A stretch of 56,798 bases of DNA from a virus (lineage: Duplodnaviria > Caudoviricetes): positions 1 to 56,798 of the IMG/VR virus record IMGVR_UViG_3300049845_000287; one strand, written 5' to 3'. The notes under the pieces were generated by a model. It had not been told where the DNA came from, ran no database searches, and saw nothing but the letters and a program-made list of their open reading frames with translations. Positions 15,025 through 45,756 of the stretch are shown here, one piece after another. Positions within the stretch are counted from its first letter, which is position 1. Each line of letters starts with the position of its first letter. Position numbers and translations under genes: made by a program.

Positions 15025-15027
15025 GTG

Positions 15028-26726: not shown

Positions 26727-27584
26727 TCAGTCTTCGACTGAAGCGAGCCAGTCTTGCATCTGCTTGAGCATCGTGCGCAGGTTGAGCTCGGTGCCTGCCC
26801 AGCTACGGGCGTCCTCCTGTCGGCATAGGTGGTAGATACGCTCTGCCTGCTCACGGTCGAAGCCGCCTTCCATCATGTACTCGATGGACTGTTCCATCTT
26901 GCGGTCGGCGTACAGCCTGGTCTTGCTCTCACTCGCCCAGTCACCACGAGCAAGGGTCTCTTCGACCCACTCGATGTACTGCCTGGCGACTGGTCGGGTG
27001 TCGATGCCACGGGCCATGCCCTTGGGACAGCGATCGAACTGCCGTGCCCAGAACATGACGTCCACATCAGCGATGTCGAACTTCGCATTGAAGTGGTTGA
27101 CGTGTGCGACTCTGTGGTCTGGCCCCCGCAGGTCGATGAACGTCCTGGTGCGGATGTCCATCCCTACCATAAGGTAGTCCATGTCGAAGCGTTTGACCAC
27201 GCCGATCACGTCATCGGCGCCGTCGTGCCAACTCAGGTTGAGCTTGGGGTATCCGGCCAGCTCGAGACCCACGGTCTGCAGCTTGAACCTGCGCTTGGTG
27301 GTGTCGTCCCAGTAGCGGATGCGCTCCGCCTTGAAACGCTCGATGTCGGAGGCCGGCTGCCATCCGTGGCACATGAACAACTGGACGAGCGAGGACAGAC
27401 ACGCCTTCGTGTAGCAGAAGACGTCGAGGTCTGTCTCATCCGGCCAGGTGTTGAGCTCGTCGAAGGTGAAGGTCGGCTCGGGACAGTAGGCAAGGATGCT
27501 CTGTCCCGTGTAGCACGCCTTCACTTCGGACGGGATGAGGCCGAGTATCTCGTCGACCTTGTCGCGTGAGAACGCACCATTCAT
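26727..27584 (-). CDS. Pol-beta-superfamily nucleotidyltransferase
   Basis: YTGQSI...ETDLDVF (hG[GS]..DhD-like) and KRFDM.Y.MVG motifs. Confidence 0.65.
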   Translation of the reverse strand: MNGAFSRDKVDEILGLIPSEVKACYTGQSILAYCPEPTFTFDELNTWPDETDLDVFCYTKACLSSLVQLFMCHGWQPASDIERFKAERIRYWDDTTKRRFKLQTVGLELAGYPKLNLSWHDGADDVIGVVKRFDMDYLMVGMDIRTRTFIDLRGPDHRVAHVNHFNAKFDIADVDVMFWARQFDRCPKGMARGIDTRPVARQYIEWVEETLARGDWASESKTRLYADRKMEQSIEYMMEGGFDREQAERIYHLCRQEDARSWAGTELNLRTMLKQMQDWLASVED

Positions 27585-27775
27585 CGGGGAGCACCTGCCT
27601 TGATGGCGAGGCGCAGTCCCCTGAGTTCGAGGATGGCACGGTCGATGAACTCGACGGCCTCGGTCGGTCGGTCAGGATTGGATGCACATGCGCTGGCTGC
27701 TGACAGCCACGCTCGCGCAACCTGGAACCTGGGGCTGAACCTGCCCCGTTGGATCTGAACGATAGCCTTGGGCAT
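27581..27775 (-). CDS. small hypothetical protein
   Basis: GGAAGGGG RBS, ATGA-coupled downstream. Confidence 0.55.
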   Translation of the reverse strand: MPKAIVQIQRGRFSPRFQVARAWLSAASACASNPDRPTEAVEFIDRAILELRGLRLAIKAGAPR

Positions 27776-27802
27776 GGTTCGCCCCTTCCTGTGGTGGGAG
27801 TG

Positions 27803-28093
27803 CTAGTACCCGCGCTCCATGCGGACGCGGTAGTCGTAGGTCGCATCGTCCTCGTCGAAGAAGTAGTGACCGTTCCCCCACCCTTCCAGGGTGTGAGCGT
27901 AGACGTCACCGGTCACATACTCGTACGGCTCTCCGATCATGGCTGTGTCCATGGGGCGGTGGCGTTCACACAAGACGATGGCGACTGCGGTTCGGATGCC
28001 GTCGAGCGGAGTGCCCGCGGCGATGACCTTGCACCCTTCGGGTGGATGCCAGTCTGGTGATACGCCAGGGACATGGAGTCCCGTCGCTTCCAT
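27803..28093 (-). CDS. hypothetical protein
   Basis: 96 aa ORF in a tightly packed leftward cluster. Confidence 0.65.
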   Translation of the reverse strand: MEATGLHVPGVSPDWHPPEGCKVIAAGTPLDGIRTAVAIVLCERHRPMDTAMIGEPYEYVTGDVYAHTLEGWGNGHYFFDEDDATYDYRVRMERGY

Positions 28094-28095
28094 GG

Positions 28096-28302
28096 TTATG
28101 CGTCCATCTCTTGCTGTTCGCTCACAGCGGGCGTGGCTCCGAGGCTCTCAGCCTCGTCGACGAACTGTCCCCACCGTACGAACTTGACGTCGCCGCCGAA
28201 ACGGACAGCGAGTCGTAGTGCCTTGAGCTCTGAACGCTCAGGTGTGAGCCTGTTACCTGGCCCGTAGACGATGAAGATTCCATCGTTCGCCTTGCGTGTC
28301 AT
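28096..28302 (-). CDS. small hypothetical protein
   Basis: AAGGAG RBS, 68 aa. Confidence 0.65.
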   Translation of the reverse strand: MTRKANDGIFIVYGPGNRLTPERSELKALRLAVRFGGDVKFVRWGQFVDEAESLGATPAVSEQQEMDA

Positions 28303-28519
28303 CGTGCTCCTTTCGTAGAAGATGACTGATGTCGAGCTTCTCGTGTGAGGTACTCACCTCCCATCGGTGGCCGGTCACATGTACGCCGTGCATCGTGCGA
28401 TGCCGTCCTCGTTGCCAGTATCCATAGCACTCCGAGTTGGCGCTCGGAGATACGGGAATGAGTTTGCAACGGGACGAGCGTACGCATGATGCACAGAGTG
28501 GATGGTCTTGTGGTCGCAT
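28253..28519 (-). CDS. small Cys-rich hypothetical protein
   Basis: GAGG RBS; CASC...C...C. Confidence 0.4.
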   Translation of the reverse strand: MRPQDHPLCASCVRSSRCKLIPVSPSANSECYGYWQRGRHRTMHGVHVTGHRWEVSTSHEKLDISHLLRKEHDDTQGERWNLHRLRAR

Positions 28520-28523
28520 GGTG

Positions 28524-28670
28524 CTACCTCTTCTTGAAGTAGTGAGCGCCACAGACAGAGCACGTTCCTTCGGACGTGGAGTTAGCTCCCTCTTTGCCGA
28601 GTCTGACTGTGAGGATCACGACCTTGTTGCCGCATCGGCGGCAGCGTTGTACCGACTTCGTCCAGTTCAT
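28524..28670 (-). CDS. 48-aa zinc-ribbon protein (not in ORF track)
   Basis: my translation MNWTKSVQRCRRCGNK...TCSVCGAHYFKKR; ATGA overlap with the upstream stop. Confidence 0.6.
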   Translation of the reverse strand: MNWTKSVQRCRRCGNKVVILTVRLGKEGANSTSEGTCSVCGAHYFKKR

Positions 28671-28792
28671 CGCTTGTGCCACCTCTTGTTAGGACACGGT
28701 GTCCACTGCGGATAGGTGGCAGGGTCACCTCTGTCCAGACGTGGGTCGTGGCTGTGACAGACAGGGCAGACGGGCGGGACGTGCTTCTTCAC
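28667..28792 (-). CDS. small Cys/His-containing protein
   Basis: GTGA-coupled start; CPVC...CPN..WH. Confidence 0.5.
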   Translation of the reverse strand: MKKHVPPVCPVCHSHDPRLDRGDPATYPQWTPCPNKRWHKR

Positions 28793-29160
28793 TTGTCCCA
28801 CCCTTCCACCTGCTCGGGGTCGTGTGCCTTGGCCAGGCCACGCACGTTGTCGAGCCATGGCCTGGTCGGACCCATGTCGAACGTGGGCTCGATGCCCTCG
28901 TCCTCTGCCACGGTCGTTGGTACGAACGGGGCAGGGTCATCGAACGCCGCTTGTACCGGGCGGTTGCTGAGCTTGGGTGCGCGTCCGTAACCGAACGCCT
29001 TCTTCAGTGCGGTGATGCTCTGAACAGGGCCGGCTTCCCAGATGTCCTTGGTCAGGTACACCTTCTGTTGGTCAGCCCTCGTCGTGCCGATGATGCACGT
29101 CACACCGTTGGTCTCGACCACCGCATGGATGGTGAGCCCGATGAGGTCAGTCGGTCTCAT
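28789..29160 (-). CDS. hypothetical early protein
   Basis: AAGGAGG RBS, 123 aa. Confidence 0.75.
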   Translation of the reverse strand: MRPTDLIGLTIHAVVETNGVTCIIGTTRADQQKVYLTKDIWEAGPVQSITALKKAFGYGRAPKLSNRPVQAAFDDPAPFVPTTVAEDEGIEPTFDMGPTRPWLDNVRGLAKAHDPEQVEGWDK

Positions 29161-29308
29161 GCTTCACCTCCTTGTCCTCCTCGTTCTTCGATGCTTGCTC
29201 GATCTGTGCCTCGGTGCAACCTCGTGGCCTGAACTCGAGACAGTCACCTGAACCGGGGTGGTGCCCCCAGCAGTGGTCGCTCGAGACCTGGCAGGGTAGG
29301 AGTGCCAT
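29147..29308 (-). CDS. small hypothetical early protein
   Basis: AAGGAGG RBS, 53 aa, just downstream of two motif copies. Confidence 0.55.
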   Translation of the reverse strand: MALLPCQVSSDHCWGHHPGSGDCLEFRPRGCTEAQIEQASKNEEDKEVKHETD

Positions 29309-29414
29309 GACTTCCCTCCTTCGTATCGACAGAACATGACGCGAGAGACACAAGGGATGTTCTCGCTTCTTGCCCGGTGCTCGGTCGTTGCCCTTGTCTC
29401 ATTCATCAACAAGC

Positions 29415-29445
29415 GTAGCAACGCCGAGAACACAAGGGAGCGAGG
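29415..29445 (-). promoter_or_regulatory. repeated motif, candidate phage-specific early promoter
   Basis: CCTCGCTCCCTTGTGT-N9-TGCTAC. Confidence 0.65.
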
Positions 29446-29556
29446 GAGGAGGCAAGGGGGAGAGAAGCGCAGGGGGACTTCGTCCTTTCGGCTTGTGACC
29501 GACGATGACCCGGCCCCGATGGGGTGACGAGCAAAAGAACTCCCAAGTGAGCGAGT

Positions 29557-29590
29557 GTGCAGACCGGCGGCTCCCGTTGCCGGCCTGCAC
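29557..29590 (-). terminator. hairpin after paralog 1
   Basis: gtgcaggccggc / gccggtctgcac stem 17 nt past the stop codon. Confidence 0.55.
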
Positions 29591-29606
29591 TCTCGACTCG
29601 ATGGTA

Positions 29607-29942
29607 CTAGAACGTCTCGCCGTCGACCACGACGAGGTCGCCGTCGTCGGTCTCGACGAACTCGGCACCCGGCACGATCGTGAACTCGTTGCCGAGCCAG
29701 CGTGCGGCGAACTGCTCGCCCGTCTTGAGCTTGCCGCGGTCCGCCGAGCTCATCATGTTGATCGTCGCAACCGACCCGTCCTCGACCAGGAACGACAGCT
29801 CGTACATCGGCCGTCCGTCCTTGGTCTGCGTGTCCTTCCAGCCCAGCAGGATCCCGATGACTTCCTGCGTCCTGGCCTGGATCTCGCCGGTCTGCAAGCC
29901 CAGCTCCTCCGCCATCTTGGCGTAGTCGACTGTCTTCGGCAC
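29607..29942 (-). CDS. early protein, paralog 1 (possible OB fold)
   Basis: GTG start with AAGGAGG RBS; 88 of 106 residues identical to 30343-30675. Confidence 0.85.
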   Translation of the reverse strand: MPKTVDYAKMAEELGLQTGEIQARTQEVIGILLGWKDTQTKDGRPMYELSFLVEDGSVATINMMSSADRGKLKTGEQFAARWLGNEFTIVPGAEFVETDDGDLVVVDGETF

Positions 29943-29979
29943 CGTCCTCGCCTCCTTCTGCTCTTCGGGCATGCTCCCA

Positions 29980-30010
29980 ATAGCACACCCCAAGACACAA
30001 GGGAGCGAGG
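29980..30010 (-). promoter_or_regulatory. repeated motif, candidate phage-specific early promoter
   Basis: CCTCGCTCCCTTGTGT-N9-TGCTAT, about 40 nt upstream of paralog 1. Confidence 0.65.
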
Positions 30011-30099
30011 AGACGAGGGAGCAGCGGCAACCTCGGGGAACGAAGACTGCCTCGACCCTCCTCATATCCTGAGAATCACAAGCTGCTCACTCGCCCATT

Positions 30100-30183
30100 C
30101 GGCAAGTGATCGGATAGGACTCGGCTCCCCCCTGTGGTGGAGCGAGGGGTCTTGGTCTGCTCGATGCGGCAAGTGATCGGATA
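30100..30183. repeat. 17-bp direct repeat x2 in intergenic DNA
   Basis: cggcaagtgatcggata at 30100-30116 and 30167-30183. Confidence 0.9.
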
Positions 30184-30296
30184 CGACCCGGTCCCTCGCT
30201 CAAGCGAGGTCGACTCGATTCGATTGCCTCGTTCGTCCTTGCCCACGCATCAGGTGGAAAAGGACTCCCAAGGAACGGGAGCCCTTCACGCGCACA

Positions 30297-30327
30297 GCGA
30301 CACGGGAGCATCACGCCCCCGTGCCGC
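30297..30327 (-). terminator. hairpin after paralog 2
   Basis: gcggcacgggggc-gtgat-gctcccgtgtcgc stem 16 nt past the stop codon. Confidence 0.55.
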
Positions 30328-30342
30328 CATGCCCGAGCAGAC

Positions 30343-30675
30343 CTAGAAGGTCTCGCCATCGACGACGACGAGGTCGCCATCGCTGGTCTCGACGAACTCG
30401 GTGCCGGCAACAATCTGGAACTCGTTGCCGACCCAACGCGCGGCGAACGCCTCGCCAGTGCGGAGAGCGCTGCGATCGGCAGACGCCATCATGTTGATGG
30501 TCTGCACGCTGCCATCCGCGACCAGGAAGGACAGCTCGAACATCGGACGACCGTCCTTGGTGGCGGTGTCCTTCCAGCCGAGCAGGATGCCGACGACCTC
30601 TTGGGTGCGAGCGGCAATCTCGCCAGTCTGCAGTCCGAGCTCGGCTGCCAGCTTGGCATAGTCGGGAGCCTTCAT
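30343..30675 (-). CDS. early protein, paralog 2 (possible OB fold)
   Basis: GAGGAGG RBS, 110 aa, paralog of 29607-29942. Confidence 0.85.
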   Translation of the reverse strand: MKAPDYAKLAAELGLQTGEIAARTQEVVGILLGWKDTATKDGRPMFELSFLVADGSVQTINMMASADRSALRTGEAFAARWVGNEFQIVAGTEFVETSDGDLVVVDGETF

Positions 30676-30711
30676 CGTACCAACCTCCTCAGGAGACGTG
30701 GGAGCGCGCTT

Positions 30712-30742
30712 ATCGCACTCCCTGAATCACAAGGGGACGAGG
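30712..30742 (-). promoter_or_regulatory. repeated motif, candidate phage-specific early promoter
   Basis: CCTCGTCCCCTTGTGA-N9-TGCGAT, about 37 nt upstream of paralog 2. Confidence 0.6.
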
Positions 30743-30796
30743 ACACCGTTGCGAGTGGCGCACGCTGAGGGACATTGAATCTTTGAACACACTGCG

Positions 30797-30859
30797 AGAA
30801 CCGAACGACTGAAGTCAGCGGAAGCAAGCCGTCCCTGCTAGGGCAGGGAGTTCGGTTCT
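30797..30859. other. compact four-way-junction structure (RNA or ssDNA)
   Basis: perfect 10-bp closing stem agaaccgaac/gttcggttct enclosing three hairpins. Confidence 0.5.
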
Positions 30860-31309
30860 GCACATCAACTTCTGTCCCCACCACGCGCACGCAACGGATG
30901 CCTCGGATTCAGGGATGCTTTGAGACAGCGGTCGCTCTCTCACGCTCTCTGTGTGTATGGGGGGGTGGGTATATATGTATTAGAGGGATGAAAGGATAGA
31001 TGGAAGTACCCCCTACACCATTTCTCCCCGTTCCCAGATTCCGCCCCGCACAGGTAGACCTGTGCTGCTTTGCGCCCGAGGCGTGCGGTCTGTCACGCTT
31101 CAGACCCGCCTGCGTCCGTGGACGCTTTGATGCCAACGCACCAGGCGTCCGTTGACCCTGTTGGCCTTTGCGTGCGGCTGTTTCTCTGGTTTCTCGGCTT
31201 CCTCCCGCTCCGCTCGCGTCGCTGCGCTCCGCTCGACGTCGCGGTCGGGGAAGTCGATGGAAGTGGAGGGGTTGGTGGTGGGGTTGACCAAGGATGCTAG
31301 TGTTCTAGC

Positions 31310-31697
31310 CCCCCTAGTGCGGCGAGTGATTTTTTCTTCGGGGGTTGCCGCAGGGACCCCCTGTTGGAGCCGTGTGCTTCACGGTGCTCTCGGACACGGC
31401 TCCGCTGATCCCTCTGACGGAAGTCGTGTCCGGCGGTCAGCCGACAGGTGAAGCCAACGGTGTGAGGTTGCTGTGGGGAGCTACGCTTCTGTGGGTGCGG
31501 TCACCCCCTGTGGGGGCGTCCATTTGGAGACGGAAACGGGTCCGCTCTTGCCTCCCGGAGGTTGGCTGGCGAACCCGTGGTTCTTCGACTGCTTGGCCTT
31601 GACTGTTGCTTTGTGCGTCCTGCGTGGCATAAGATGGCCTCGGTACTTGATGAGAGGCGCCCACACTTCGCCGTGACGGGGCGCTTCTCGCGTTTTC
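31310..31697 (+). ncRNA. candidate structured non-coding RNA
   Basis: no credible ORF; TGCTAGTGT upstream; several stems; ends in a hairpin followed by T residues. Confidence 0.3.
31652..31697 (+). terminator. intrinsic terminator-like hairpin
   Basis: gagaggcgccc / gggcgcttctc followed by gcgtttt. Confidence 0.5.
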
Positions 31698-31703
31698 AGT
31701 GGC

Positions 31704-31732
31704 TTGATTCTCCCCCTCGGTATCGGTAGTGT
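31704..31732 (+). promoter_or_regulatory. sigma70/SigA-type promoter for the rightward arm
   Basis: TTGATT-N17-TAGTGT, 37 nt upstream of 31769. Confidence 0.6.
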
Positions 31733-31768
31733 CAATACCACCGAAGCCCCCCACAGGGAGGAACGAAG

Positions 31769-32023
31769 ATGGCTGAGTCCAGCGAGACCATGCCCGTCGA
31801 CCTTGGAGCCAAGATGGCTCCGTCGCACACGCTCACCGACGATCCGTGGGCGCACCGCTCCGCCGGGATGAGGTGTTCGAGCTGCATGTGGTTCGTCGAG
31901 AAGGCGGGCACCACGTCGGGTGTGGGCCGCTGCCGGCGCCATGCTCCCACGATGAACGGTTACCCGGTCGTGTTCCTGATGGACTGGTGCGGCGACCACA
32001 AGCTCGACGAGAGGCGGTCATGA
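31769..32023 (+). CDS. small four-Cys protein (HiPIP-like Cys spacing)
   Basis: GGGAGG RBS; CSSC..F...GRCRRHAP...DWCG. Confidence 0.75.
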   Translation: MAESSETMPVDLGAKMAPSHTLTDDPWAHRSAGMRCSSCMWFVEKAGTTSGVGRCRRHAPTMNGYPVVFLMDWCGDHKLDERRS

Positions 32024-32292
32024 TGGCAGCGAGGTTCAGGAAGAAGCCGGTCGTCATCGAGGCCGAGTTGTTCGATGGCTCGATGGCTTCGGCGGATTCG
32101 ATCGAGAAGTGGTCCGGTGGTATCACGAGCGCGAACGTGCTTGATGACCTTACGACGCTTGTGATCGACATCCCTACGCTCGAGGGGACGATGAGAGCGG
32201 TCGCCGGTGACTTCATCATCAGGGGCGTCCAGGGTGAGTTCTATCCCTGCAAGCCCGACATCTTCCACGCGACCTACGAGTATGTGGAGTAG
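32020..32292 (+). CDS. widespread small phage protein of unknown function
   Basis: FRKKPVVIEA...TLEG...GDFII.GV.GEFYPCKPDIF..TYE signature. Confidence 0.85.
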   Translation: MMAARFRKKPVVIEAELFDGSMASADSIEKWSGGITSANVLDDLTTLVIDIPTLEGTMRAVAGDFIIRGVQGEFYPCKPDIFHATYEYVE

Positions 32293-32295
32293 CTG

Positions 32296-32868
32296 ATGGC
32301 CCTGGACTTCGATGCACTCAACGAGGTCGCTCAGGTCGAGACCGAGCCCGACCAGACCATCATCGAGCGGCTCAGGTTCGACGATGCGCTCGATGTGCCC
32401 CATCAGCTGACCGACGTCGACGTGTGGCTCAACTACTGCAACGACGACCTCTACCACATGGACAAGGCGATCCGCGCCTACATCAACAAGAGCCGGTGGA
32501 CGAGGTTGACCAAGGGCAAGATGAAGACCGCGGTGCCGCTGCTGTTCTTGCAGTTGTTCGGCCGCAAGCCCGACGCCCACGACAGCCAGGTGTGTCAGAT
32601 GATGCACCGGATCCTGACCTACTACTGCACCTCCTACACCGGCATCACCAAGATCAACGGTGTGAGGTTCAACCGGGTCTACTACTTCTCCAAGTACGCG
32701 ATGCGGTCGAAGAGGCCGATGTCGCTGAGGCTGCGATTGGAGGAGTCCAATGGCAGCGAGCACAGCTTCAGAGAGTACAAGCCTGGTGCAGACAAACAGG
32801 CGGAGCCTCGACGAGGAGTTACGCAACACGGCCCACTTGCAGATGGGCAAGGTCGCGTATCGAAGTGA
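32296..32868 (+). CDS. hypothetical protein
   Basis: GGAG RBS, 190 aa, high GC3. Confidence 0.75.
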   Translation: MALDFDALNEVAQVETEPDQTIIERLRFDDALDVPHQLTDVDVWLNYCNDDLYHMDKAIRAYINKSRWTRLTKGKMKTAVPLLFLQLFGRKPDAHDSQVCQMMHRILTYYCTSYTGITKINGVRFNRVYYFSKYAMRSKRPMSLRLRLEESNGSEHSFREYKPGADKQAEPRRGVTQHGPLADGQGRVSK

Positions 32869-33400
32869 GTACGGCACGCCACGCATAGGCGTGGACAACG
32901 GCAACCGGTGCGACGCCACCACGCACCTCGCCTCGCAGATGTTCACCGACGCGGTGTTCAACCGCGACATCCGCATGATCCAGATGATAATCACCCGTAT
33001 CGACGGGGGGCTTCCGAAAGACACGGAGGTCGAGGAGTACCAGACGCTGTTCGGCGATTGCATGAACGCGGTCCTGGGACTCGGTGACGGCGAGAAGCTC
33101 AAGGTCCTACCGACCGATACCGTGATGATGGCGTTGTGCAAATCGCTCTACGACATCGCGGCGGAGGACATCTACCATGAGGTCAAGGCCGACGCCAACG
33201 GCAACAGGTGGGCGCGTTCACGCCGCCCCTCGACCGAAGCCAAGAAGGACCGTGACGCCGCCCTGCGGCTCATCACGGAGCGCGCCGGCGGCCGCAAGAC
33301 CGCCATCCCCAAGACCCCCGAGCTCCAAGACGCTGTCGTCTCGGCCTCGTGGATCCCCCAGTCCTCACTACCACAAGGAGCCGATGGTGAGACGCGATGA
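32750..33400 (+). CDS. hypothetical protein, weak terminase small subunit candidate
   Basis: GGAGGAG RBS; two helical repeats ending IITRIDGG and ITERAGGR. Confidence 0.55.
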   Translation: MAASTASESTSLVQTNRRSLDEELRNTAHLQMGKVAYRSEYGTPRIGVDNGNRCDATTHLASQMFTDAVFNRDIRMIQMIITRIDGGLPKDTEVEEYQTLFGDCMNAVLGLGDGEKLKVLPTDTVMMALCKSLYDIAAEDIYHEVKADANGNRWARSRRPSTEAKKDRDAALRLITERAGGRKTAIPKTPELQDAVVSASWIPQSSLPQGADGETR

Positions 33401-36817: not shown

Positions 36818-38659
36818 ATGATGATCCATCCCGACAGATGGACTCCCACGGTCAAGAAGCGCGAGACCGCCTTCGGCGACTTCTCGACGCCGAACCTGTT
36901 CGACAAGGCCAAGAACAAGGCCGGCCAGATCGGGCGCAGCGTCAAGTCCAAGGTCGACAAGGTCGCCGAGCGCAAGGTGACGCCTTACATGCAGGGGCCG
37001 GTGAAGTACCGCAAGGGCGACGGGCAGCTCTCGACCAAGGAAGAGAATCTCGCTCTGCCGCATCCGACCCCGGCACACGCCGAGCAGGCGCAGGCCAATG
37101 AGCTCAAGACACGCCCCAAGGTGCGGACGAGCTACGCCGGGGATCCTCGGGCATACGGTGGCGGCCCCGAGACGCCCGCTATCAAGCGCGGACTGGCGCT
37201 CATCACCGGGCCGACCGGCCAGGACATGGGCTCGCTTATCAACCCGAAGCTTCTTGAAGAGGTCAAGGAGCAGGGCTTCCCGCCTCCCGCGGACCCGATG
37301 GACATGGACTTCGAGCCGACTCCGCAGCAAGAGCTCGTTGGACAGGCGTTGAGCGCGCCGATCATATCCACTCTCGAGGTCGGCGGTGACGCGCTCAACC
37401 GTCTCGGAGGAGGCAGGCGCAACGCCGCCGACAACCCGTACCGCGAGGACGACGACCCGGTCTATCGCTACGTCACCCCCGAGAACGAGGAGTTCACCTC
37501 GGCCGACCTGAAGCACTACTTCTCGATGGGCGACGGTGAACCGGTCACCGACGAGTTCCTGAACACGGCCCGCGCCTACAAGCCCGAGTTCTATACCCAC
37601 CACGTCCCCGGCGCGGAGCTTGCCTCGGACGGGAAGACCTGGGTGCGCTACACCCATCTCGCACTCGGAGACGAGAAGAACCCGGTCATCGTCCCTGTCG
37701 AGGACTTCGAGAACCGCACCTACCTCGGCCAGGGGATCAGCCCGGACTACATCGGCCCCGAGCTCGACGAAATCTGGCGCACCCAGATCAACGAGAACAA
37801 GTTCGGCACCGCCGTCCCGCGCGCCCCGCTCCAGGACCGCACGAACAAGTGGGCGTGGGAGCCCGGCTTCGACCCGAAAGACATCCCGTGGGACGAGCAG
37901 ATGGAGTGGTACACCGACCTCTCGCTCGGTTCCTCGCCCTACTATGTGCCCGGCGTGCGCTACGGCGCGGGCGCTGCGCGGGCGCTTCCTTATGCGCTTG
38001 GGTACGAGGGCGAGACCGGTATGGGCCAGGGAGTCGGGCTCGACAACGTGATGGGCATGGGGAACCTGTCCTACAACGACAAGGACCTCAATGTCGGCCA
38101 AGCGGTCGGCGGCACCGTCCAGCCGATGGTGGAAGCGTGGGCCGAGTACGGCCTGTCGGACACCGCGGTCGGCGGTGCCATGAAGCTCGCCAAGGTCATG
38201 CCGAAGGGGTTGCGCACCTCTCTGTCGAAGACCGCCGCTGCCCAGGCGTTCGGCCCGCTCGGCAGGACGCTGCCCGCGCAGGTGGTGGCCGGCGGCCTCA
38301 CAGAAGGGTTCGAGGAGATCCTCGGCGTCATCCCCGGCATGATCGCCCAGGACGGCCTTGGCAACCTCGGCCGTGACCGCAAGTGGAACGACAAGATGGA
38401 GCGGTGGGACTACGGCAAGGGTGACTTCTGGACACGGGCGGGCAACGTCGGCACCGCGATGGGCGAGGCGTTCGCATCAGGTGCGGCCATGGGCCTGCCG
38501 ATGTCGCTCGGTGGCGAGCTCCTCTCGCGCGCCAAGGGAGAAGGCACGACCGGCAAGAAGCCATACGTCGCACCGCCACAGATAGAAGCCGCACCCAGAG
38601 CGGACGGTCAGAGCCAAAGCGACCGTATCGCCGCGTTCCGTGATGAGAGGGCTCGCTGA
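36818..38659 (+). CDS. putative internal virion (ejection) protein
   Basis: 613 aa; C-terminal Gly/Ala-rich hydrophobic region with EGFEE motif typical of podovirus ejection proteins. Confidence 0.6.
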   Translation: MMIHPDRWTPTVKKRETAFGDFSTPNLFDKAKNKAGQIGRSVKSKVDKVAERKVTPYMQGPVKYRKGDGQLSTKEENLALPHPTPAHAEQAQANELKTRPKVRTSYAGDPRAYGGGPETPAIKRGLALITGPTGQDMGSLINPKLLEEVKEQGFPPPADPMDMDFEPTPQQELVGQALSAPIISTLEVGGDALNRLGGGRRNAADNPYREDDDPVYRYVTPENEEFTSADLKHYFSMGDGEPVTDEFLNTARAYKPEFYTHHVPGAELASDGKTWVRYTHLALGDEKNPVIVPVEDFENRTYLGQGISPDYIGPELDEIWRTQINENKFGTAVPRAPLQDRTNKWAWEPGFDPKDIPWDEQMEWYTDLSLGSSPYYVPGVRYGAGAARALPYALGYEGETGMGQGVGLDNVMGMGNLSYNDKDLNVGQAVGGTVQPMVEAWAEYGLSDTAVGGAMKLAKVMPKGLRTSLSKTAAAQAFGPLGRTLPAQVVAGGLTEGFEEILGVIPGMIAQDGLGNLGRDRKWNDKMERWDYGKGDFWTRAGNVGTAMGEAFASGAAMGLPMSLGGELLSRAKGEGTTGKKPYVAPPQIEAAPRADGQSQSDRIAAFRDERAR

Positions 38660-41600
38660 TGTCGAAGACCCATGGTGCCCCTACCGTCGGCCCCGGCGGG
38701 ACCAGAGGCGATGCCGAGCAGGGGCAACCGCGCATCAACATCCCGAAGATCGAGGTCGATGTACCGGCTATCGAGACCCCGGTCACCGAGGCACCGGCGG
38801 AGACCGGAGCACCGCAGGGTACACCCCAAGGCGCACCGAAGACCGTGGTGCCGCCTGCGGCCCCGGCGCCTGTCGCTCCTCCTGCGGGCCCTCGCCCCGG
38901 CACGGTCGAAGCGATGCAGGGGATCCCGAAGCCGGTCGAACAACGCGCCGAGCAGACCGTCCTTCCCGGCTTCGAACCACCTCCGGCACCCCTCGAAGGA
39001 CCGCCTCCGGTCAGCGCACCGCCGGCTCAGGGCCAGGCTCCGATCCCCGACCTGATGCAGACGCAGGCGGTCGAAGGCACGGGCGCTCCTGCGGCGCTGG
39101 GCGCAGAGCAGCTCGGGTCGCTCCAGACGCAATCGACCGTCGTGAAAAACGAAGAGAAGCTGCTCGAGCAGGGCGGCCTCGAGGCGACTTCCCCCGTGTC
39201 TCAAGCGCGTGTCCCGACCGTCGAGGAACTGACCGGTGGCGAAGACCTGTTCGCGGCCGAGCAGACCGACGTGATCGCGAATCGTGCGGTCGACATGGAG
39301 GATATGGTCCCGCCGACCAAGGCGACCAGGGCGAACCTGCCTGACCGCTCGTCGAAGGCCGTGCTCAAGGAGCAGCGCGAAGAGGCGACCGCCGGGTACG
39401 GCACCGACGAGACGGGAACGGCCGTCCGCGGCAAGCTCTCCGCAGGGTGGGACGTCAAGATCCACGAGATCTCGGTGTCCGCCGAGCAGCTCGTCGACGC
39501 ATGGCGGCATCAGACCTCCGGTCTGCGCGAGCTCATGACCGAGTACGGCTACGACCAGGAGCAGATGCTCGCCAACCGCGCGTACGCGATCTGGGCCGTG
39601 ACAGACCTGTTCACCAACAACGACATCGAGGCGCTGGCGATGAAGGCGCCGCTCGTCGACGAGGCGTCGGTGCATCGCCGCGTGGTCCGTATCAACAAGG
39701 GACGCGGCATCAAGATCAACCCCATCGTCTTCACGATGTGGAACGCCGACTTCGACGGCGACGACATGATCCTGTCCTTCGGCAGGGAGGCCATCCGTGA
39801 CGCCAAGAGCGCGATGGACTTCCTCATCGGCACGGACGGCGTGGGCAAGATCGACCCCGACTTCTTCGACATGGCTCCCTGGGGCGACGGGACCACCACG
39901 GTCTACGCGCACCTCAGAGAGCTGTTCGAGGGAGACCCCGACAACCCGCTCCTGCTCACCGAGGCCGAGCTCAAGGGGCTGGCGAGCGCCATCGAGCGCG
40001 GGTGGTCAAAGGACTCGAAGGTGCGCGCGGCTGGGTATCGGTCGCTCCTGCGCTGGTCGAGGCAGATCGGCGAGCGGTTCCCGGCCGGCCCCGGTCGTGA
40101 CGAGGCCGTCGCCAGGATACTGACCGACATCTACAACCAGAACAAAGACATCCGCATGCTCACCCTCGGGTTCACGGCGGGCTGGAACTACATCGCCCCC
40201 GCCGACCTCAACGGCGAGTACGGCGAGGAGTCCCAGTTCCCCGAGCTCGAGAGTGATTCGTCGACCCCGGCGAACATGAAGGACATGGAGCGGGCGCTCG
40301 GCACGCCGATCGGCTACGTCCCGGGCAAGAACATCCACTTCCGCGTGACCGCCAGCTTCCTCAAGGCGGCCCGCCAGGTCTCGTACTTCATGGGCATCAA
40401 GCCTCCGGGCGACACCTTCGAGGAGAAGGTCGCGCTCATGGCGAGCGGTATCGAGGCGTTCGACGAGGCCGAGCGCGGTGTCTCCGACTGGGCTCGCAGG
40501 CTCATCATCGAGTCTCTCGGCGGCTTCCCCGCAGACGGGCACCTCGACCCGAAGAAGTTCGACGCCTATATCAAGAAGTTCGTGAGGCGCTACAACTACA
40601 TCGCCTACACGGTGAACTCCGTGACGGCCACCTTCAACCTCGACGACACCATCTCACCGGCCGACCGGCAGAGCTACGTCAAGCCGATCCGCACGGCGAA
40701 CCAGATCGACATGAACCGCGACATCCGCAAGGAGTTCAAGAACGTCTTCGGCTCCTTCACGATGGGCAGGCTGTTCGGCAAGGAGTGCCCCAACGGCTGG
40801 GAGAACATCACGCTCGACGAGTTCGTCCACACCAACAGGGCCGATGCCACATCCCCGGCTGGCGCGAAGCTGCTCGGCCGCCCGTCGACCCCGCTCGACA
40901 CGCCGGCGCATCTCATCGGCCGTCTCGCCGACCTGCGCACCAGCTTCTCCAAGACCTACAACGACGAGTTCACCAAGTCGCTCAAGAAGCAGTTCAGCCC
41001 CGGCGGCGAGCTGCTCTTGCGCAAGGTCGGGATCCTGCGCAAGGAACAGCGGGTGGCCAAGAAGAACTCGGCACAGCTCGACGCCGACATGATCGTGCTG
41101 CTCGATGCCATGCGCTCGTTCTCCGTCGACATCTTCTACTTCCTCGGGTTCAACTCACCGGCCGATCTGGAGCGAAACCCGCTCGGCCAGAAGTTCCTGG
41201 GCGCGACCAACTACAACAAGCTCGGCGGCCTGATGTACGAGGCCGCCACCCGCTACCGGTTCGAGCCGGTCCAGCACGCAGAGAGGGAACTGCGCGCCGC
41301 GAAGAACGGCAAGGAGCGTCGGCACTGGGAGAGCGTCTTGCGCCACGAGCTCGGGGAGATCGCATCGAGCTCGGAGACCTGGGCTGTCATCGTGCATGAC
41401 TACGAGAACGGCGGGGACGTGCTCCCCCGCGTCCTGCTCTCCGACATGACCAAGACGCAGAAGGAAGCCGAGATCGTCAAGCTCGTCCACGAGAGCATCG
41501 TCGGACGACACGGCTACAACAAGGACGAGGTGGCCGCCGGGCTCATGGGCAACCCGAAGGGGCTCTACGCCCGCGACCGCTTCATCTCCGACTTCGGTCA

Positions 41601-44600
41601 CACGAACCTGATGAAGAACGTGAAGGCCGCATCAGACACCATCGACCGGTACGCCAAGCTCAACTGGACGACGATGGTGACCGACATCAAGAACGCCCGC
41701 GCAGGGGCGAAGCCCGACGAGATGAAGCAACTGCTCTCGCGCATCGCACGCGACCCCTCCATCCTCGTGCCTATCGAGAACTGGCAGATCGGCGACGCCG
41801 TCCTCTCGCTGATGGAGAAGTCCTACCCGTCCTCGGAGAAGGCGCAGCAGGAGCCAGAGGTCGCCTACATCTACTCGGCCATCAGCAACCTCATCAACGC
41901 TGGGACGTGGTCGGACCTCGTCGTCGGCGGTGACTTCGCCGTCGGCTCCATCTCCGCGATACGTCTCGCCCAGTCTCCGGGCATCCTGGCCAAGGCGATC
42001 TCCGACCCGAACTTCGCCATCCGCGTCTACGACGGGAAGGGCTCGACCATCCTGTCGCAGTACGCCCTGTTCAAGAAGAACAACCCGTCCGACAAGGAGA
42101 TCTGGGACTGGCTCGAGAACAACCCGCGCATGGCGATGGCGCTGCGCCTCACCACCATGGGCAACAGCGTCAACAAGAAGACCGGGTTCTCCTACACCAA
42201 CGCGACCAAGACGCTCGAGAAGTCGATGTACGAGCTGCGCAAGCCCGAGTCGGTCCCGATGCGCTGCCTCAAGAAGCTCGCCGACCATCCCGGCTTCTAT
42301 GCGATGGTCGCGCTCTCCGTCCCCATGGAGGGCCAGCGCAGGGTGCAGCTGAGGAAGACGGCAGGTGACAACGTCTGGAACGTCATCGAGCTCATCCGCT
42401 CGTTCAACAAGACCGGCATGACCGGTGAGAAGTTCGTCGAGGAGCTCGTCAAGCGCAACGGGCTTCCCGAGGGCATCACGCTCGACGAGGTCAAGAGGCT
42501 CTACAAGGAGGGCCAGAAGGCGACGACCTCGATCGCCGAGGCCGACCAGTACGACGTGCGCGACACGCGCGAGTACCAGATAGGCCAGCTCATGGCGCAC
42601 CTCGCGGCCAACCTCGAGGAGTACGCGGGTATCGTCGACACCATCCCCGGTGGCTCGCTCGGATTCCCTCCGCGCAAGATCGCACTCGACCTGTTCCAGT
42701 TCAGCGACGAGACCACGCTGCGGTCGTACTTCGACGCGGTGCAGGTCATGAGCGGCGCCAAGACGGAGGTCTCGACCTCGGTCAACGCCGCAGAGTCGAA
42801 GAAGAACGCCGCGCTGATGTTCCTCGCCCAGTACGTCCCGAAGGCGTGCGGCGCGCCCGAGCCTGTCCGGATGAAGACCGGGCAGCTCGCAGCCGTGTGG
42901 GAAGACCACATCGGCGACCAGGTGTTCTTCCCGCCGCTCACCGAGGACGGCAGCCCGGAGTGGTACTACATCAACGAGGCGAACCTCGAGTTCATCACCG
43001 AGTACGCGAACGAGAACTACGGCGGCATGGTCATGATCGAGGACACCGCGGCCTGCGTCGACCCGCTCTGCCGGTGTGCCCGGCACGCCAAGGCCGACCC
43101 GTCCACGAACTTCACGGGGCTGCAGACCACCGAGCTCGGTAGGTTCCTCACTGTGGTGCGTACGTTCTCGGGAGAGACGCTCAACCTCAAGATCAAGACG
43201 ACCGGCGACGACGAGACCGACTCCATCACCAAGAACAAGGTCTTCGAGATCCTCGACGTCGGTCTCGAGCGCAGGCTCAACGACGAGTGGGTCAAGCTCG
43301 GCATGAACCCGGCGCCCGAGACGCTGCTGGTCCTGCGCACGATGGTCGCCGAGAAGATGAAGGAGACCTACAAGGAGATGGGCTACGGCGAGGAGCTCAC
43401 GCTCGACGACTTCACCGCGCTCGCTCATTTCATGGTGCGCCCCTACGAGGCCGCCGACGGGCTGATGAAGATCAAGCTGCTCTCCATCGGCCAGCTCAAC
43501 GCCATCTGCCACGAGGCGGCGACCGCGTACGTCAACGAGCTCGGCGACCAGATCACCCACCAGGGTGTGCTCGACAGGATGGTCGAGGCGCTCTCCGACG
43601 ACAGCATCGTCGCCTCCGAGATGGACATCAACGACGTGACCGCGCTGGTCGACGTCGCGCCCAAGATGTTCATGACGCCGAGGCTGAAGTACCAGCGCAT
43701 GTCGAGCACGGGGCGCAACCTCGAGCTCGCCAAGCAGATCGTCAAGGAGAACCCCGACGTCCGTGCCCTGTCGGAGGAGGCGATGGACGACTACGAGTCC
43801 ATCCTGCTCAAGAAGGACAAGCGCGGCCTGGTCGACAGTTGGAAGAACCTCAACCTGTTCGGCGAGAAGTACATGAACAAGCGCTACAAGCTGCGCCTCA
43901 TCGGCATCTTCACCGACAAGGGTTCCATGTCCGAGGAGTTCATCGGCCCCCGCAACTGCTGGCTGCTCAAGCGCGGCGGGGCGTCGGTCGACACGATCGC
44001 CAGGGCGTACCGGCTCGGTATCACGGTGCTCATCGAGAACCCGTCCGAGGTCGACTGGAAAGAGGTCAGTCGCATGACCGGAGGGGAGATCGACGAGAGG
44101 CAACTCGTCGACAAGGGCGGCAACCGCTGGCTCATCCCGATGTTCGACATCCGGCTCAACGGACAGAACCGCTCCGAGAACCACGGCGCGTTCGACGCGG
44201 GCGTGGTCCACGTCCTGCCCGAGAGCGTCTACTTCTACTTCGAGAGCATCCTGAACAAGGACGCGGCGGCTGACGCCGAGTTCATCCCGACCAAGTGGTT
44301 CTCGGACAACATCACGTTCAAGCGCACCGGCACCTACCGGCTGCCCGCCAAAGCGGCGTTCGCCAACCTGATATGGGAGCAGCGTCCCCGTGGCGGCCCC
44401 GGTGTGGTCAACATCGACATCGCCACGCGCCAGCAGATCGAGGACTACTTCGTCGACGGGTACGTCTCCGACACGGCGGACGACGCGCCACCCGAGCTCG
44501 ACAAGAGCATCCCGCTCGATCTGGGCAAGGCCAACACCGAGGAGGGGAGCCGTGAGAACAACCGGTTCCTCGAGGACGTGAAGGTCTACCTGTCCCGCTA

Positions 44601-45756
44601 CCACGAGACCAATGAGAAGGGGATGCTCCCGAGCGCCAAGCCCGACGAGATCATCGGGTGGCTGCGAGCCGAGATCAACGGAGAGGTGAGGTTCCACCCC
44701 ATCCGCATGTTCGAGCTCGGTCACGGTGCGGGAGCGCCGACGGACATGGAGATCGACTGGGAGAAGACCAAGTTCGACCAGGGCACCCAGGAGCTCCTCG
44801 TGGAGTGGAGGAGCGAGGGCTCGATGCTCGGCCGCATGTTCAAGATATTCGAGGGCGGCTTCGCGTCGAACAAGTTCATGGCGCGCACGGACGCCATCGA
44901 CGACATGGAGCTGCAGAACGGGGTCAAGATCGCCGGCTACATCGCACGGCAGTCCACCTCCGGCCGCCGGTTGCTCATGCGCCGCCAGCAGAAGATGTCG
45001 ACGCTGATGTATATGGCGCGGCTCTCCCCGTACGGCTACAACTTCGCGGAGCGAGACGACACGTTCCCGAACGACCCGGAGATCAAGGAAGCCCTGCTCT
45101 CCGGTGAGATGGAGATCGGTGAATGGGACAAGATCCTGAAGGTCGGCGACATCCAGTTCTACCCGGAGGCCGGCGGTGAGCGCAACGCCTTCCTCAACGA
45201 CATGTGCCGCAAGGCGGTGCGCTACAAGGTCAACCCGACCGTCGTGCTCGCCTCGCGTTACGGCGGCGAGGGCGGGACGCCATCGAACCTGTGGTTCAAC
45301 TTCCAGGTCCTGTTCGGGCGCGGGCCCGGCTACCAGCGCAACCTCATGCAGTGGCTCAACTTCATGATGCCGACGCTGTGCCCGCCCGGCCTCGAGGATG
45401 GCAAGAAGCCGAACACGCTGTTCAACGCCAACCTCCAGGTCTACGTCCCTGCCAGCCACACGATGAAGACCTCGGTGCTGGGCAGGAAGCGCGGCGACAC
45501 GGTCACCGTCGGAGAGTGGGTCGACCTGTACGGTGGGTTCCACTTCCTCGACGAGCACTACGACGGGCACTCGAACTCGGGGAGCACGGTCAAGTCCGAC
45601 GGGATCCCCGGACTCAACACGCTCATGGCAGGCGGCAAGGAACTCTCGTCCAAGCAACTCAAGGCATACTTCGGCTGGGGCAACATCGGGCACGCGGGCA
45701 ACTGGTCCGTGGCACCGTCCGGGATGATCTCTCCTGACCAAGAGCCGATCGACTAG
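38659..45756 (+). CDS. giant virion-module protein with RNA polymerase beta'-like catalytic elements (putative virion RNAP)
   Basis: MKAP...IKINP...WNADFDGDDM (N362-D368); bridge-helix-like aa 1357-1391; Zn site C1397/C1466/C1473/H1476; trigger-helix-like aa 1493-1514. Confidence 0.8.
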   Translation: MSKTHGAPTVGPGGTRGDAEQGQPRINIPKIEVDVPAIETPVTEAPAETGAPQGTPQGAPKTVVPPAAPAPVAPPAGPRPGTVEAMQGIPKPVEQRAEQTVLPGFEPPPAPLEGPPPVSAPPAQGQAPIPDLMQTQAVEGTGAPAALGAEQLGSLQTQSTVVKNEEKLLEQGGLEATSPVSQARVPTVEELTGGEDLFAAEQTDVIANRAVDMEDMVPPTKATRANLPDRSSKAVLKEQREEATAGYGTDETGTAVRGKLSAGWDVKIHEISVSAEQLVDAWRHQTSGLRELMTEYGYDQEQMLANRAYAIWAVTDLFTNNDIEALAMKAPLVDEASVHRRVVRINKGRGIKINPIVFTMWNADFDGDDMILSFGREAIRDAKSAMDFLIGTDGVGKIDPDFFDMAPWGDGTTTVYAHLRELFEGDPDNPLLLTEAELKGLASAIERGWSKDSKVRAAGYRSLLRWSRQIGERFPAGPGRDEAVARILTDIYNQNKDIRMLTLGFTAGWNYIAPADLNGEYGEESQFPELESDSSTPANMKDMERALGTPIGYVPGKNIHFRVTASFLKAARQVSYFMGIKPPGDTFEEKVALMASGIEAFDEAERGVSDWARRLIIESLGGFPADGHLDPKKFDAYIKKFVRRYNYIAYTVNSVTATFNLDDTISPADRQSYVKPIRTANQIDMNRDIRKEFKNVFGSFTMGRLFGKECPNGWENITLDEFVHTNRADATSPAGAKLLGRPSTPLDTPAHLIGRLADLRTSFSKTYNDEFTKSLKKQFSPGGELLLRKVGILRKEQRVAKKNSAQLDADMIVLLDAMRSFSVDIFYFLGFNSPADLERNPLGQKFLGATNYNKLGGLMYEAATRYRFEPVQHAERELRAAKNGKERRHWESVLRHELGEIASSSETWAVIVHDYENGGDVLPRVLLSDMTKTQKEAEIVKLVHESIVGRHGYNKDEVAAGLMGNPKGLYARDRFISDFGHTNLMKNVKAASDTIDRYAKLNWTTMVTDIKNARAGAKPDEMKQLLSRIARDPSILVPIENWQIGDAVLSLMEKSYPSSEKAQQEPEVAYIYSAISNLINAGTWSDLVVGGDFAVGSISAIRLAQSPGILAKAISDPNFAIRVYDGKGSTILSQYALFKKNNPSDKEIWDWLENNPRMAMALRLTTMGNSVNKKTGFSYTNATKTLEKSMYELRKPESVPMRCLKKLADHPGFYAMVALSVPMEGQRRVQLRKTAGDNVWNVIELIRSFNKTGMTGEKFVEELVKRNGLPEGITLDEVKRLYKEGQKATTSIAEADQYDVRDTREYQIGQLMAHLAANLEEYAGIVDTIPGGSLGFPPRKIALDLFQFSDETTLRSYFDAVQVMSGAKTEVSTSVNAAESKKNAALMFLAQYVPKACGAPEPVRMKTGQLAAVWEDHIGDQVFFPPLTEDGSPEWYYINEANLEFITEYANENYGGMVMIEDTAACVDPLCRCARHAKADPSTNFTGLQTTELGRFLTVVRTFSGETLNLKIKTTGDDETDSITKNKVFEILDVGLERRLNDEWVKLGMNPAPETLLVLRTMVAEKMKETYKEMGYGEELTLDDFTALAHFMVRPYEAADGLMKIKLLSIGQLNAICHEAATAYVNELGDQITHQGVLDRMVEALSDDSIVASEMDINDVTALVDVAPKMFMTPRLKYQRMSSTGRNLELAKQIVKENPDVRALSEEAMDDYESILLKKDKRGLVDSWKNLNLFGEKYMNKRYKLRLIGIFTDKGSMSEEFIGPRNCWLLKRGGASVDTIARAYRLGITVLIENPSEVDWKEVSRMTGGEIDERQLVDKGGNRWLIPMFDIRLNGQNRSENHGAFDAGVVHVLPESVYFYFESILNKDAAADAEFIPTKWFSDNITFKRTGTYRLPAKAAFANLIWEQRPRGGPGVVNIDIATRQQIEDYFVDGYVSDTADDAPPELDKSIPLDLGKANTEEGSRENNRFLEDVKVYLSRYHETNEKGMLPSAKPDEIIGWLRAEINGEVRFHPIRMFELGHGAGAPTDMEIDWEKTKFDQGTQELLVEWRSEGSMLGRMFKIFEGGFASNKFMARTDAIDDMELQNGVKIAGYIARQSTSGRRLLMRRQQKMSTLMYMARLSPYGYNFAERDDTFPNDPEIKEALLSGEMEIGEWDKILKVGDIQFYPEAGGERNAFLNDMCRKAVRYKVNPTVVLASRYGGEGGTPSNLWFNFQVLFGRGPGYQRNLMQWLNFMMPTLCPPGLEDGKKPNTLFNANLQVYVPASHTMKTSVLGRKRGDTVTVGEWVDLYGGFHFLDEHYDGHSNSGSTVKSDGIPGLNTLMAGGKELSSKQLKAYFGWGNIGHAGNWSVAPSGMISPDQEPID

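Follow-up and report, generated by a model that had tools for sequence, protein, structure and literature searches.

A phage that carries its own RNA polymerase is free of host control as soon as infection begins, and the signals that such polymerases read are known for only a few systems. Does the viral genome IMGVR_UViG_3300049845_000287 carry signals of this kind? This IMG/VR virus record of 56,798 bp (called the window here, meaning the whole stretch of DNA analyzed) has a GC content of 63–64% and looks complete. An original prediction had singled out five sites at the head of its leftward module, described them as two boxes held 9 nt apart, and proposed that they are early promoters read by an injected phage polymerase. 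The repeats proved to be genuine cis-elements, all in one orientation, and they stand where this module begins. From comparison of sequences we tentatively read them as cassettes in which a phage-specific promoter is joined to a 5' stem-loop, and which would restart transcription after terminators. The features concerned are listed in Table 1.

Repeated boxes and hairpins in the leftward module

All five sites are present in the sequence. The three strong ones (copies A, B and C) follow the 31-nt pattern CCTCGYYCCCTTGTG-N10-TGCKAY, are its only exact matches in the window and share the minus strand; in 100 dinucleotide-preserving shuffles there was no match. An unguided repeat search of 29250–31100 recovered the same three as one family (D2; 35 nt, 69–74% identity to the reference copy) and placed weak copy D within another, D5. 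Looser searches came close to chance. With up to two mismatches the 24-nt form matched 5 times (1.44 expected), and with up to three the 15-mer matched 12 times (8.67 expected). CTTGTG occurs 25 times across the window against 22.2 expected, and so is not over-represented, with 5 of the 25 on the minus strand in 29349–30733. The evidence for a motif thus rests on the three long copies. Weak copies D and E are there as predicted, but their claim to the family comes from this same CTTGTG.

The copies had also been described as intergenic, and this stood up. The only open reading frame (ORF) that overlaps copy A, 30672–30890, has a GC content at third codon positions (GC3) of 0.58, below the 0.82 and 0.95 of genes A and B; for this reason we take it to be non-coding and the copies to be intergenic. 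Each box is C/T-rich and includes the core CCTTGTG, invariant in the window and CCTTGKG family-wide, and the box is the sole element common to all three upstream regions. From the end of the box to the start codon there are 36 nt for copy A (ATG at 30675) and 37 nt for copy B (GTG at 29942), each start codon standing behind GAGGAGG or GAAGGAGG, in keeping with the predicted ∼40 nt to a gene with a strong ribosome-binding site (RBS). Copies B and C lie ∼250 and ∼88 nt, respectively, behind strong U-run hairpins (terminators A and B), so that two copies do follow terminator-like structures.

Table 1. Positions of the repeats, hairpins, early genes and polymerase-like gene in the window
Feature	Position	Strand	Remarks
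Copy A, CCTCGTCCCCTTGTGA-N9-TGCGAT	30712..30742	-	ahead of gene A; exact match, repeat family D2
Copy B, CCTCGCTCCCTTGTGT-N9-TGCTAT	29980..30010	-	ahead of gene B; exact match, repeat family D2
Copy C, CCTCGCTCCCTTGTGT-N9-TGCTAC	29415..29445	-	106 nt before gene C; exact match, repeat family D2
Weak copy D, TCCCTTGTGT-N9-CATGTT	29333..29357	-	24 nt before the ATG of gene C; in repeat family D5
Weak copy E, CTTGTGA-N9-TATGAG	30061..30082	-	without a gene directly after; alone not beyond chance
Stem-loop after A, GGGAGTGCG / ATAAG / CGCGCTCCC	30700..30722	-	9 bp; begins 5 nt past TTGTG; includes the TGCGAT box
Stem-loop after B, GGGTGTGCT / ATTGGG / AGCATGCCC	29967..29990	-	same register as the stem-loop after A
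Composite longer stem-loop after C	29380..29428	-	includes the TGCTAC box; fold z -3.29
Gene A, 110 aa, no known family	30343..30675	-	RBS GAGGAGG at 30690-30684
Gene B, 111 aa, paralogue of gene A	29607..29942	-	GTG start behind GAAGGAGG (29958-29951)
Gene C, 53 aa, unrelated to A/B	29147..29308	-	
Terminator A, two stacked hairpins, the second ending CCTTGGGAGTCC then TTTT	30255..30332	-	z -5.67 (computed on a 101-nt stretch)
Terminator B, 12-bp GC-rich hairpin, then CTTGGGAGTTCTTTT	29533..29599	-	z -4.11 (computed on a 96-nt stretch)
2365-aa protein, NADFDGD near residue 362, beta'-like double-psi barrel	38659..45756	+	candidate phage RNA polymerase

Genes A and B are a tandem duplication (77% identity over 300 nt, repeat family D1), and copies A and B lie in the duplicated units. 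Might the motif then be a leftover of the duplication, or a product of chance? Against this, it is far better conserved than its flanks: units A and B agree at 23/58 positions in the upstream DNA, 13/15 in the motif, 7/21 from box to RBS and 254/331 in the coding sequence, so that by alignment the motif is a conserved island inside the duplicated units. The gene behind copy C is unrelated to A and B, distant genomes have core and hairpin at the corresponding site (see below), and 0/100 shuffles matched. Absence of function is, on these grounds, very improbable.

Each strong copy is directly trailed by a stable hairpin. Written as RNA, the stem-loop after copy A is GGGAGUGCG/AUAAG/CGCGCUCCC, with a folding energy of –16.4 kcal/mol on the sense strand versus –12.1 on the antisense strand, and that after copy B is GGGUGUGCU/AUUGGG/AGCAUGCCC, with –12.9 versus –7.2. 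Relative to A, the stem of B has two pairs altered on both sides (A-U to U-G and G-C to U-A) and two altered on one side. The fold around copy B has a z of –3.70; weak copy D has no hairpin downstream (fold z –0.68). TGCKAY, the second box of the predicted promoter, is the distal part of the 5' arm of the hairpin and extends into the loop. It is absent from the relatives at the matching place, and the stem varies between copies and between genomes while pairing is kept. Because TGCKAY is a hairpin arm whose sequence is not conserved in relatives, the bipartite geometry with an N9 spacer is unsupported.

That the motif is not shaped like a sigma-70 promoter, as had been argued, was confirmed. 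A scan of 27000–33000 gave two sigma-70-like sites and none in 29300–30750, and TTGTGW lies 12 nt from the A-containing hexamer, as against the 16–18 nt that separate the –35 and –10 elements of sigma-70 promoters. Ordinary sigma-70 promoters had been proposed elsewhere (17173, 31704). Sites do exist there, at 31735–31707 (10/12) and 17201–17173 (9/12), but such sites are no commoner than in shuffled sequence (2 versus 2.9 expected, and 3 versus 2.1). Sigma-54 and extracytoplasmic function (ECF) spacings, compared by eye with consensus sequences, did not fit the motif.

Extended –10 promoters are common in high-GC Gram-positive bacteria, and the nearest cultured relatives of this phage infect Microbacterium. 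The host polymerase might account for the repeats, with TG-C plus the following hexamer (GATAAG, TATTGG and TACGCT in copies A, B and C) as an extended –10 element and the upstream 15-mer as an activator or UP-like site. TGC stands directly before a hexamer with A at position 2 in all three strong copies, and copy C is an exact TGnTANNNT, the only one to fit this consensus fully. But in A and B the hexamer has no final T, in A it has no first T either, and TTGTGW, at 12 nt, provides no usable –35 element. At the matching place TG-C is absent from the G001, G005 and G006 relatives introduced below, whose modules have no –10-like sequence at a fixed place, and near-identical copies in one genome would be unusual for host-type promoters. 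Promoters for the host polymerase are thus unlikely here, even though many phages begin with that enzyme, according to the accessible part of a report on N4 (PMC4496689).

Core, hairpin and a polymerase-like gene in related genomes

Searching the viral contig collection with the gene A protein and the 2365-aa protein gave no close relative, and searching GenBank phages by DNA and protein with the region and the large protein gave no match. Relatives were recovered by aligning the terminase with a homologue from one distant record, which yielded 20 related loci. Six whole or near-whole records (G001–G006, 47–64% GC) were used, and with the window (G000) they make up a seven-genome family. G001 is a syntenic mirror image of the window, and G002 is the closest full-length relative recovered, as judged by identity of the large terminase (73%). 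The exact 15-mer is absent from G001–G006; at up to two mismatches it is found twice in coding DNA of G001 and once in the early region of G006.

We located matching sites in the relatives by anchoring on a conserved non-coding stretch. The first early gene is preceded by CCTTGGG or CCTTGTG in G001 (11074), G005 (51212) and G006 (25610), and it is with these sites that copy A aligns. Hence the core recurs at the matching place in three related genomes. In all three the order is core, 7 nt, a hairpin of 7–8 bp, RBS, and an ATG 52–59 nt from the core, with hairpin loops of AAAGG, AACGG and AAAGG, respectively; the family loop is ANAGG-like. Additional copies of the core precede later early genes in G001 and G005, and G002 carries GTCCCCAAG(A/T)G twice in place of the window core. 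The boxes around the core, CCTCGCTCCCTTGTGT in the window, GCGCCTTGGGTTTGTGA in G001 and GCGCACCTTGSGCATGTGT in G005, are near-identical inside one genome and divergent across genomes.

Counts of hexamers in early intergenic DNA, made genome by genome, gave a similar picture. In the window CTTGTG came out on top (5 versus 0.17 expected), as in G001 did TTGGGT (4 versus 0.06) and CTTGGG (5 versus 0.15). In G005 GGATGC ranked first (6 versus 0.64) and ACCTTG ninth (4 versus 0.38). Across modules, stems are 7–11 bp, loops 5–6 nt, and the stem starts 5–11 nt past the core. Of the cores in early sense windows, 9 of 18 have a hairpin of 7 bp or more behind them, versus 8 of 220 elsewhere (Fisher P = 1.5e-7, with windows picked post hoc); several of our counts likewise use regions selected after inspection. 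This stricter count replaced a loose genome-wide search for core plus hairpin, which was unspecific (11–24 matches per genome versus 3–20 in reversed-sequence controls). A covariance model of box plus hairpin was dropped, as MAFFT left stems of unequal length out of register.

Does the phage encode a plausible reader? A beta'-like gene had been predicted, and the data agree. The 2365-aa protein contains FTMWNADFDGDDM, with the catalytic motif NADFDGD intact, and matches the Pfam domain RNA_pol_Rpb1_2 (PF00623, E = 3.6e-06). This Rpb1 domain 2 is the sole polymerase domain found among 37 window proteins compared with Pfam, and no second, non-virion polymerase gene appeared among them. A four-sequence profile of the giant protein matches the catalytic barrel of beta' chains (E ∼1e-06). 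The top Foldseek matches of its predicted model are beta' subunits, the model being of low confidence (pLDDT 59.6, TM 0.15–0.2), and among the best 60 Protein Data Bank matches listed there was no phage polymerase chain in sequence. We consider the 2365-aa protein a candidate phage RNA polymerase. Its position, ahead of the portal and capsid genes, is by analogy a hint, and the only one, that it is packaged in the virion.

The motif xAD(F/Y)DGD is present in a giant ORF (1111–4662 aa) in all seven genomes of the family, the G001 ORF being cut by the record ends. Alongside it, the core occurs in G001, G005 and G006, a variant in G002 and an array in G003, and in G004 the region is missing; every relative compared carries the polymerase motif. 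In G006 (L122) the polymerase-like region, at 13842–16616, lies inside a single 4662-aa ORF, a stretch that the window splits into proteins of 2365 and 1875 aa. The protein database contained only three homologues of the large protein among the candidates scored, the nearer ones with 66% and 43% identity. A metagenome scan with the polymerase alignment kept 80 loci that matched only the NADFD region (∼residues 225–454, 23–33% identity). These loci, several of them on contigs of 120–820 kb, were taken uninspected as cellular beta' genes and were not used.

Promoter, leader RNA or operator

In the reading that we tentatively prefer, the repeats would be the heads of short early transcription units. 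Each unit would begin with the C/T-rich recognition box and its invariant core, followed 4–5 nt past the box by a stable stem-loop with which the mRNA would start, and then by a strong RBS and a start codon ∼60 nt from the core. Strong U-run hairpins would end units A and B, and transcription would restart at the next box. The box would act as a promoter on DNA, recognized by phage-encoded machinery, with the transcription start between core or box and hairpin. The reader would be the 2365-aa beta'-like protein, delivered with the DNA in the virion.

Besides the three exact copies, the recurrence of core and hairpin in relatives, the lack of a sigma-70-shaped site among the copies and the polymerase-like gene in 7/7 genomes, two lines of reasoning favor this scheme. 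First, gene A and gene B both end in a strong U-run hairpin, so that transcription must start anew, and the terminators that precede copies B and C support a phage promoter there. Second, a box that is conserved within a genome and drifts between genomes is what would be expected for a site co-evolving with a phage-encoded reader. Such a reader would be the simplest explanation of boxes that are specific to a genome, and no candidate for it was seen other than the beta'-like protein. In this scheme the hairpin would act in RNA, and not on the template DNA strand as in phage N4, to judge from the G-U pairs, which favor the sense strand in 9/9 hairpins (8 G-U among 79 pairs), and from the loop, conserved as ANAGG. 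The sense-strand bias is partly built in, since the search for hairpins admitted G-U pairing for the sense strand but not for the antisense strand. A hairpin acting in RNA would place the start site between core and hairpin. A promoter-like box, a strong RBS and a terminator of its own also suggest very high early expression of the gene A/B protein.

Several observations weigh against the promoter scheme. In G003 the first gene is preceded by about seven copies of CCTTGKR at ∼20-nt (19–23 nt) spacing, an array that looks more like a set of protein-binding sites than like promoters. The cores of G001 and G005 often abut the 3' arm of a terminator-like hairpin. Box plus flank is complementary to the RBS region of the following gene in 5 of 11 modules (empirical p 0.000–0.056), which argues that at least some RNAs include the box. 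Just upstream of copy A there is also a structured element that is conserved, so transcription may already be under way on reaching that copy. For the 2365-aa protein only the beta'-like barrel was found, with no second barrel, and its model is of low confidence. For the crAss-like phage phi14:2, the authors found no motif shared by the regions ahead of the early transcripts that its virion polymerase gp66 makes (10.1101/2020.03.07.982082). A search of sequencing runs for the phage listed no RNA run.

The complementarity between box and RBS raises another account, in which the repeat is an RNA element of the 5' untranslated region: the box would be transcribed from an upstream promoter and, with the inner hairpin, would hide the RBS or mark a processing site. 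Cleavage or refolding would then leave an mRNA with a protective 5' stem-loop; a comparable case is that of the RNase III sites that lie between the early genes of T7. In the five modules concerned, box–RBS duplexes reach –12.6 to –19.8 kcal/mol, and their outer flanks are divergent between genomes yet complementary (copy B of the window, the first modules of G001 and G005, and two more). In the remaining six, copy A and G006 among them, the complementarity is nothing out of the ordinary (p 0.08–0.52). The distance from core to start codon is near-constant, 52–65 nt in 8 of 11 modules, but copy C is 130 nt from any start codon. The fold z at copy B and the more stable sense strand of all nine hairpins fit an RNA element, the latter with the G-U bias already described. 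So does the structured element upstream, which implies transcription through copy A; but the strong terminators before B and C would leave little read-through RNA, and the 5' arm shows a conservation of sequence that its supposed partners lack. Taken together, an RNA element is a serious but rather unlikely explanation.

The G003 array, in turn, invites the idea that the cores are operators. A phage regulator would bind the core and switch the early units, and the true promoters would overlap or adjoin it. Such a regulator could be sought in the ParB-like DNA-binding protein encoded at 17243–18481/18610, and the near-palindromic form of two of the roughly seven G003 copies, together with their 19–23 nt spacing, would suit it. 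In early intergenic DNA the sense strand has an excess of CTTG in the window (13 versus 4.5 expected) and in G001 (12 versus 3.9), but no significant one in G005, G006 or G002. Moreover, the strong copies have a single orientation and keep a fixed distance to hairpin, RBS and start codon, and the 15-mer of the window has no dyad symmetry. Operators, we conclude, are an improbable explanation. In a count that admitted CCTTGKN-like cores, G003 had about nine in the 185 nt before its first gene (∼7202–7385, minus strand), six of them at 19–23 nt spacing; the two near-palindromic cores are TTACCTTGGGTA(G) and TTACTTTGGGTAA.

The structured element upstream of copy A spans ∼110 nt (window 30762–30884, minus strand) and is conserved in five of the seven genomes, the others being G001 (10908–11020), G002 (44974–45089, minus strand), G005 (51076–51189) and G006 (25433–25545). 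RNAalifold gave 33 pairs, 17 of them changed on both sides. An inner hairpin has the loop CCTA, and an outer helix of 8–9 bp is fully divergent across genomes with its pairing kept. There is no conserved start codon (GCG in G006). A search of 28500–32500 on both strands with Rfam 15 gave only ClpQY_promoter, on the other strand at 31504–31550 and at 21 bits versus a gathering threshold of 42 (E = 0.21). The element could be a new phage leader or small RNA.

Farther upstream, at 30959–31013 (minus strand), is a unique bipartite block, GGGGGWACTTCC followed by TATAC(N3-6)CCCCC, 39–40 nt from start to start and almost without G on the early-sense strand. It occurs once each in G001, G002, G003, G005 and G006, and so in six of seven genomes including the 47% GC member; it is absent from the incomplete G004. 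The block could be a first promoter, an origin or an end-related site.

Gene surroundings and known phage systems

The base skew and a GC3-based gene call divide the window into a leftward and a rightward module. The leftward one (12.9–30.7 kb), at whose head the repeats stand, encodes small proteins without assigned function, an AAA protein, a YqaJ-type exonuclease, the ParB-like protein and the large terminase. The rightward one encodes a primase, the 2365-aa and 1875-aa proteins, portal-like and capsid-like proteins, a tail fibre and an amidase. A scan for tRNAs found none. Proteins A, B and C and their neighbors matched no Pfam or PHROG family of known function. The duplicated protein A/B has a short motif, VxGxLxG...DG, that was also seen, by eye and through weak DNA matches, in early proteins of G001 (11999–12415) and in the first early gene of G006.

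Other repeats lie among these genes. After the terminator hairpins of A and B a tail, CTTGGGAGTYCTTTT, is retained (93%, repeat family D8; 29533–29547 and 30258–30272, minus strand), and tails related to CCTTGGG follow terminator-like stems in G001 and G005; the core may also have a part in termination. Between terminator A and copy B is a 37-nt direct repeat (30097–30133 and 30164–30200, 81% identity, 67 nt apart), each copy of which includes TATCCGATCACTTGCCG on the minus strand.

The final 126 nt of the record (56673–56798) exactly repeat positions 17–142, bases 1–24 are the reverse strand of 56695–56718, and an ORF open at 56798 runs on at 143. It follows from the terminal repeat and the reverse-strand match that the record is not a linear fragment but a closed circle, with ends that overlap through assembly and a small artefact at the start. 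Contigs from three sequencing runs, one the likely source and two from one other study, carry the window sequence with 0 differences.

How do the repeats compare with signals of known phage polymerases, as given in the accessible parts of the reports cited here? The three early promoters of phage N4 (P1–P3) combine a conserved block with an inverted repeat; co-oriented and nearly identical, they cluster where the early region starts (PMC4496689). The window likewise has a cluster of three such signals there. It shares with N4 a giant polymerase gene (here a polymerase-like candidate), a conserved block coupled to an inverted repeat whose variable positions keep pairing, and short early units separated by terminators. 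The N4 hairpin, however, has a 5–7 bp stem and a 3-nt loop, is centered at –11 inside the conserved block from –17 to +1, and acts in template-strand DNA (PMC4496689), whereas the hairpins here have 7–11 bp and a 5–6 nt loop, follow the box and are more stable on the sense strand. The N4 enzyme is a T7-like, injected virion RNA polymerase; the candidate here is beta'-like, and no T7-like enzyme was found among the 37 proteins compared with Pfam. Because defining features of both (hexamers 16–18 nt apart; an inverted repeat inside the conserved block and a T7-like enzyme) were looked for and not found, we place the motif outside the N4 and sigma-70 promoter families.

The virion polymerase of Thermus phage P23-45 offers another parallel. 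Its gp96 is a two-barrel virion polymerase fused to the tape measure, with AT-rich pre-early promoters (10.1101/2022.12.01.518664). A strongly conserved motif stands before the pre-early genes and is common to relatives with the polymerase (10.1101/2022.12.01.518664). P23-45 encodes a polymerase with a DxDGD barrel and the window a candidate of this kind, indicated by NADFDGD, PF00623 and the beta' matches; in both a strongly conserved motif is limited to the first genes and recurs in polymerase-bearing relatives, here as the core in three of them. The P23-45 motif is AT-rich and was defined by mapped start sites and ChIP-seq (10.1101/2022.12.01.518664); ours is C/T-rich in a 63% GC genome and is known from sequence alone. 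A second, non-virion polymerase gene also distinguishes P23-45 from the window, as far as the 37 Pfam-scanned proteins go. In phi14:2 the early genes are read by gp66, a giant protein of >2000 aa with a catalytic aspartate motif, encoded beside virion genes (10.1101/2020.03.07.982082); in size, in having such a motif and in gene position the candidate here resembles it. The motif of gp66 is DFDID, whereas that of the window family is still the cellular NADFDGD or differs little from it.

The nearest cultured phages are podoviruses of Microbacterium cluster EK, with 23% identity for the capsid-like protein and 28% for the terminase. These phages, Burro among them, have similar genomes of ∼54 kb with divergent leftward and rightward modules (PMC7302621, PMC8281081), and a giant 13-kb gene stands directly before their portal and capsid genes, as in the window. 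The giant protein of Burro is virion-associated (PMC7302621). In Akoni the giant gene encodes 4487 aa, matching in size the fused 4662-aa ORF of G006. This protein (Akoni gp31) has no DFDGD-like motif, and by BLASTP it showed no similarity to the 2365-aa or 1875-aa proteins of the window (best E 0.34). The accessible part of the EK literature describes no early-region motif (PMC7302621).

This work yields a seven-record family, a polymerase-like gene that keeps the cellular catalytic motif, and a short list of candidate start signals with a conserved stem-loop. Whether the repeats act as promoters or as RNA elements, the two-box model should not be carried forward. If the RNA explanation is true, they would provide a compact cassette of terminator, leader hairpin and RBS, useful for expression design in high-GC hosts. 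If instead they are promoters, the finding would join a known kind of system as a variant. A broader proposal is possible, though doubtful as a whole: the CCTTGKG box with its ANAGG-loop hairpin would be the promoter class of an undescribed, single-polypeptide beta'-like polymerase, injected by podophages distantly related to the Microbacterium EK phages, and the box, the G-poor bipartite block GGGGGAACTTCC-N28-TATACCTATACCCCC and the 110-nt covarying element would jointly make up the region for entry and early control in this family. If true, this would provide a sequence-defined promoter for a giant two-barrel virion polymerase.

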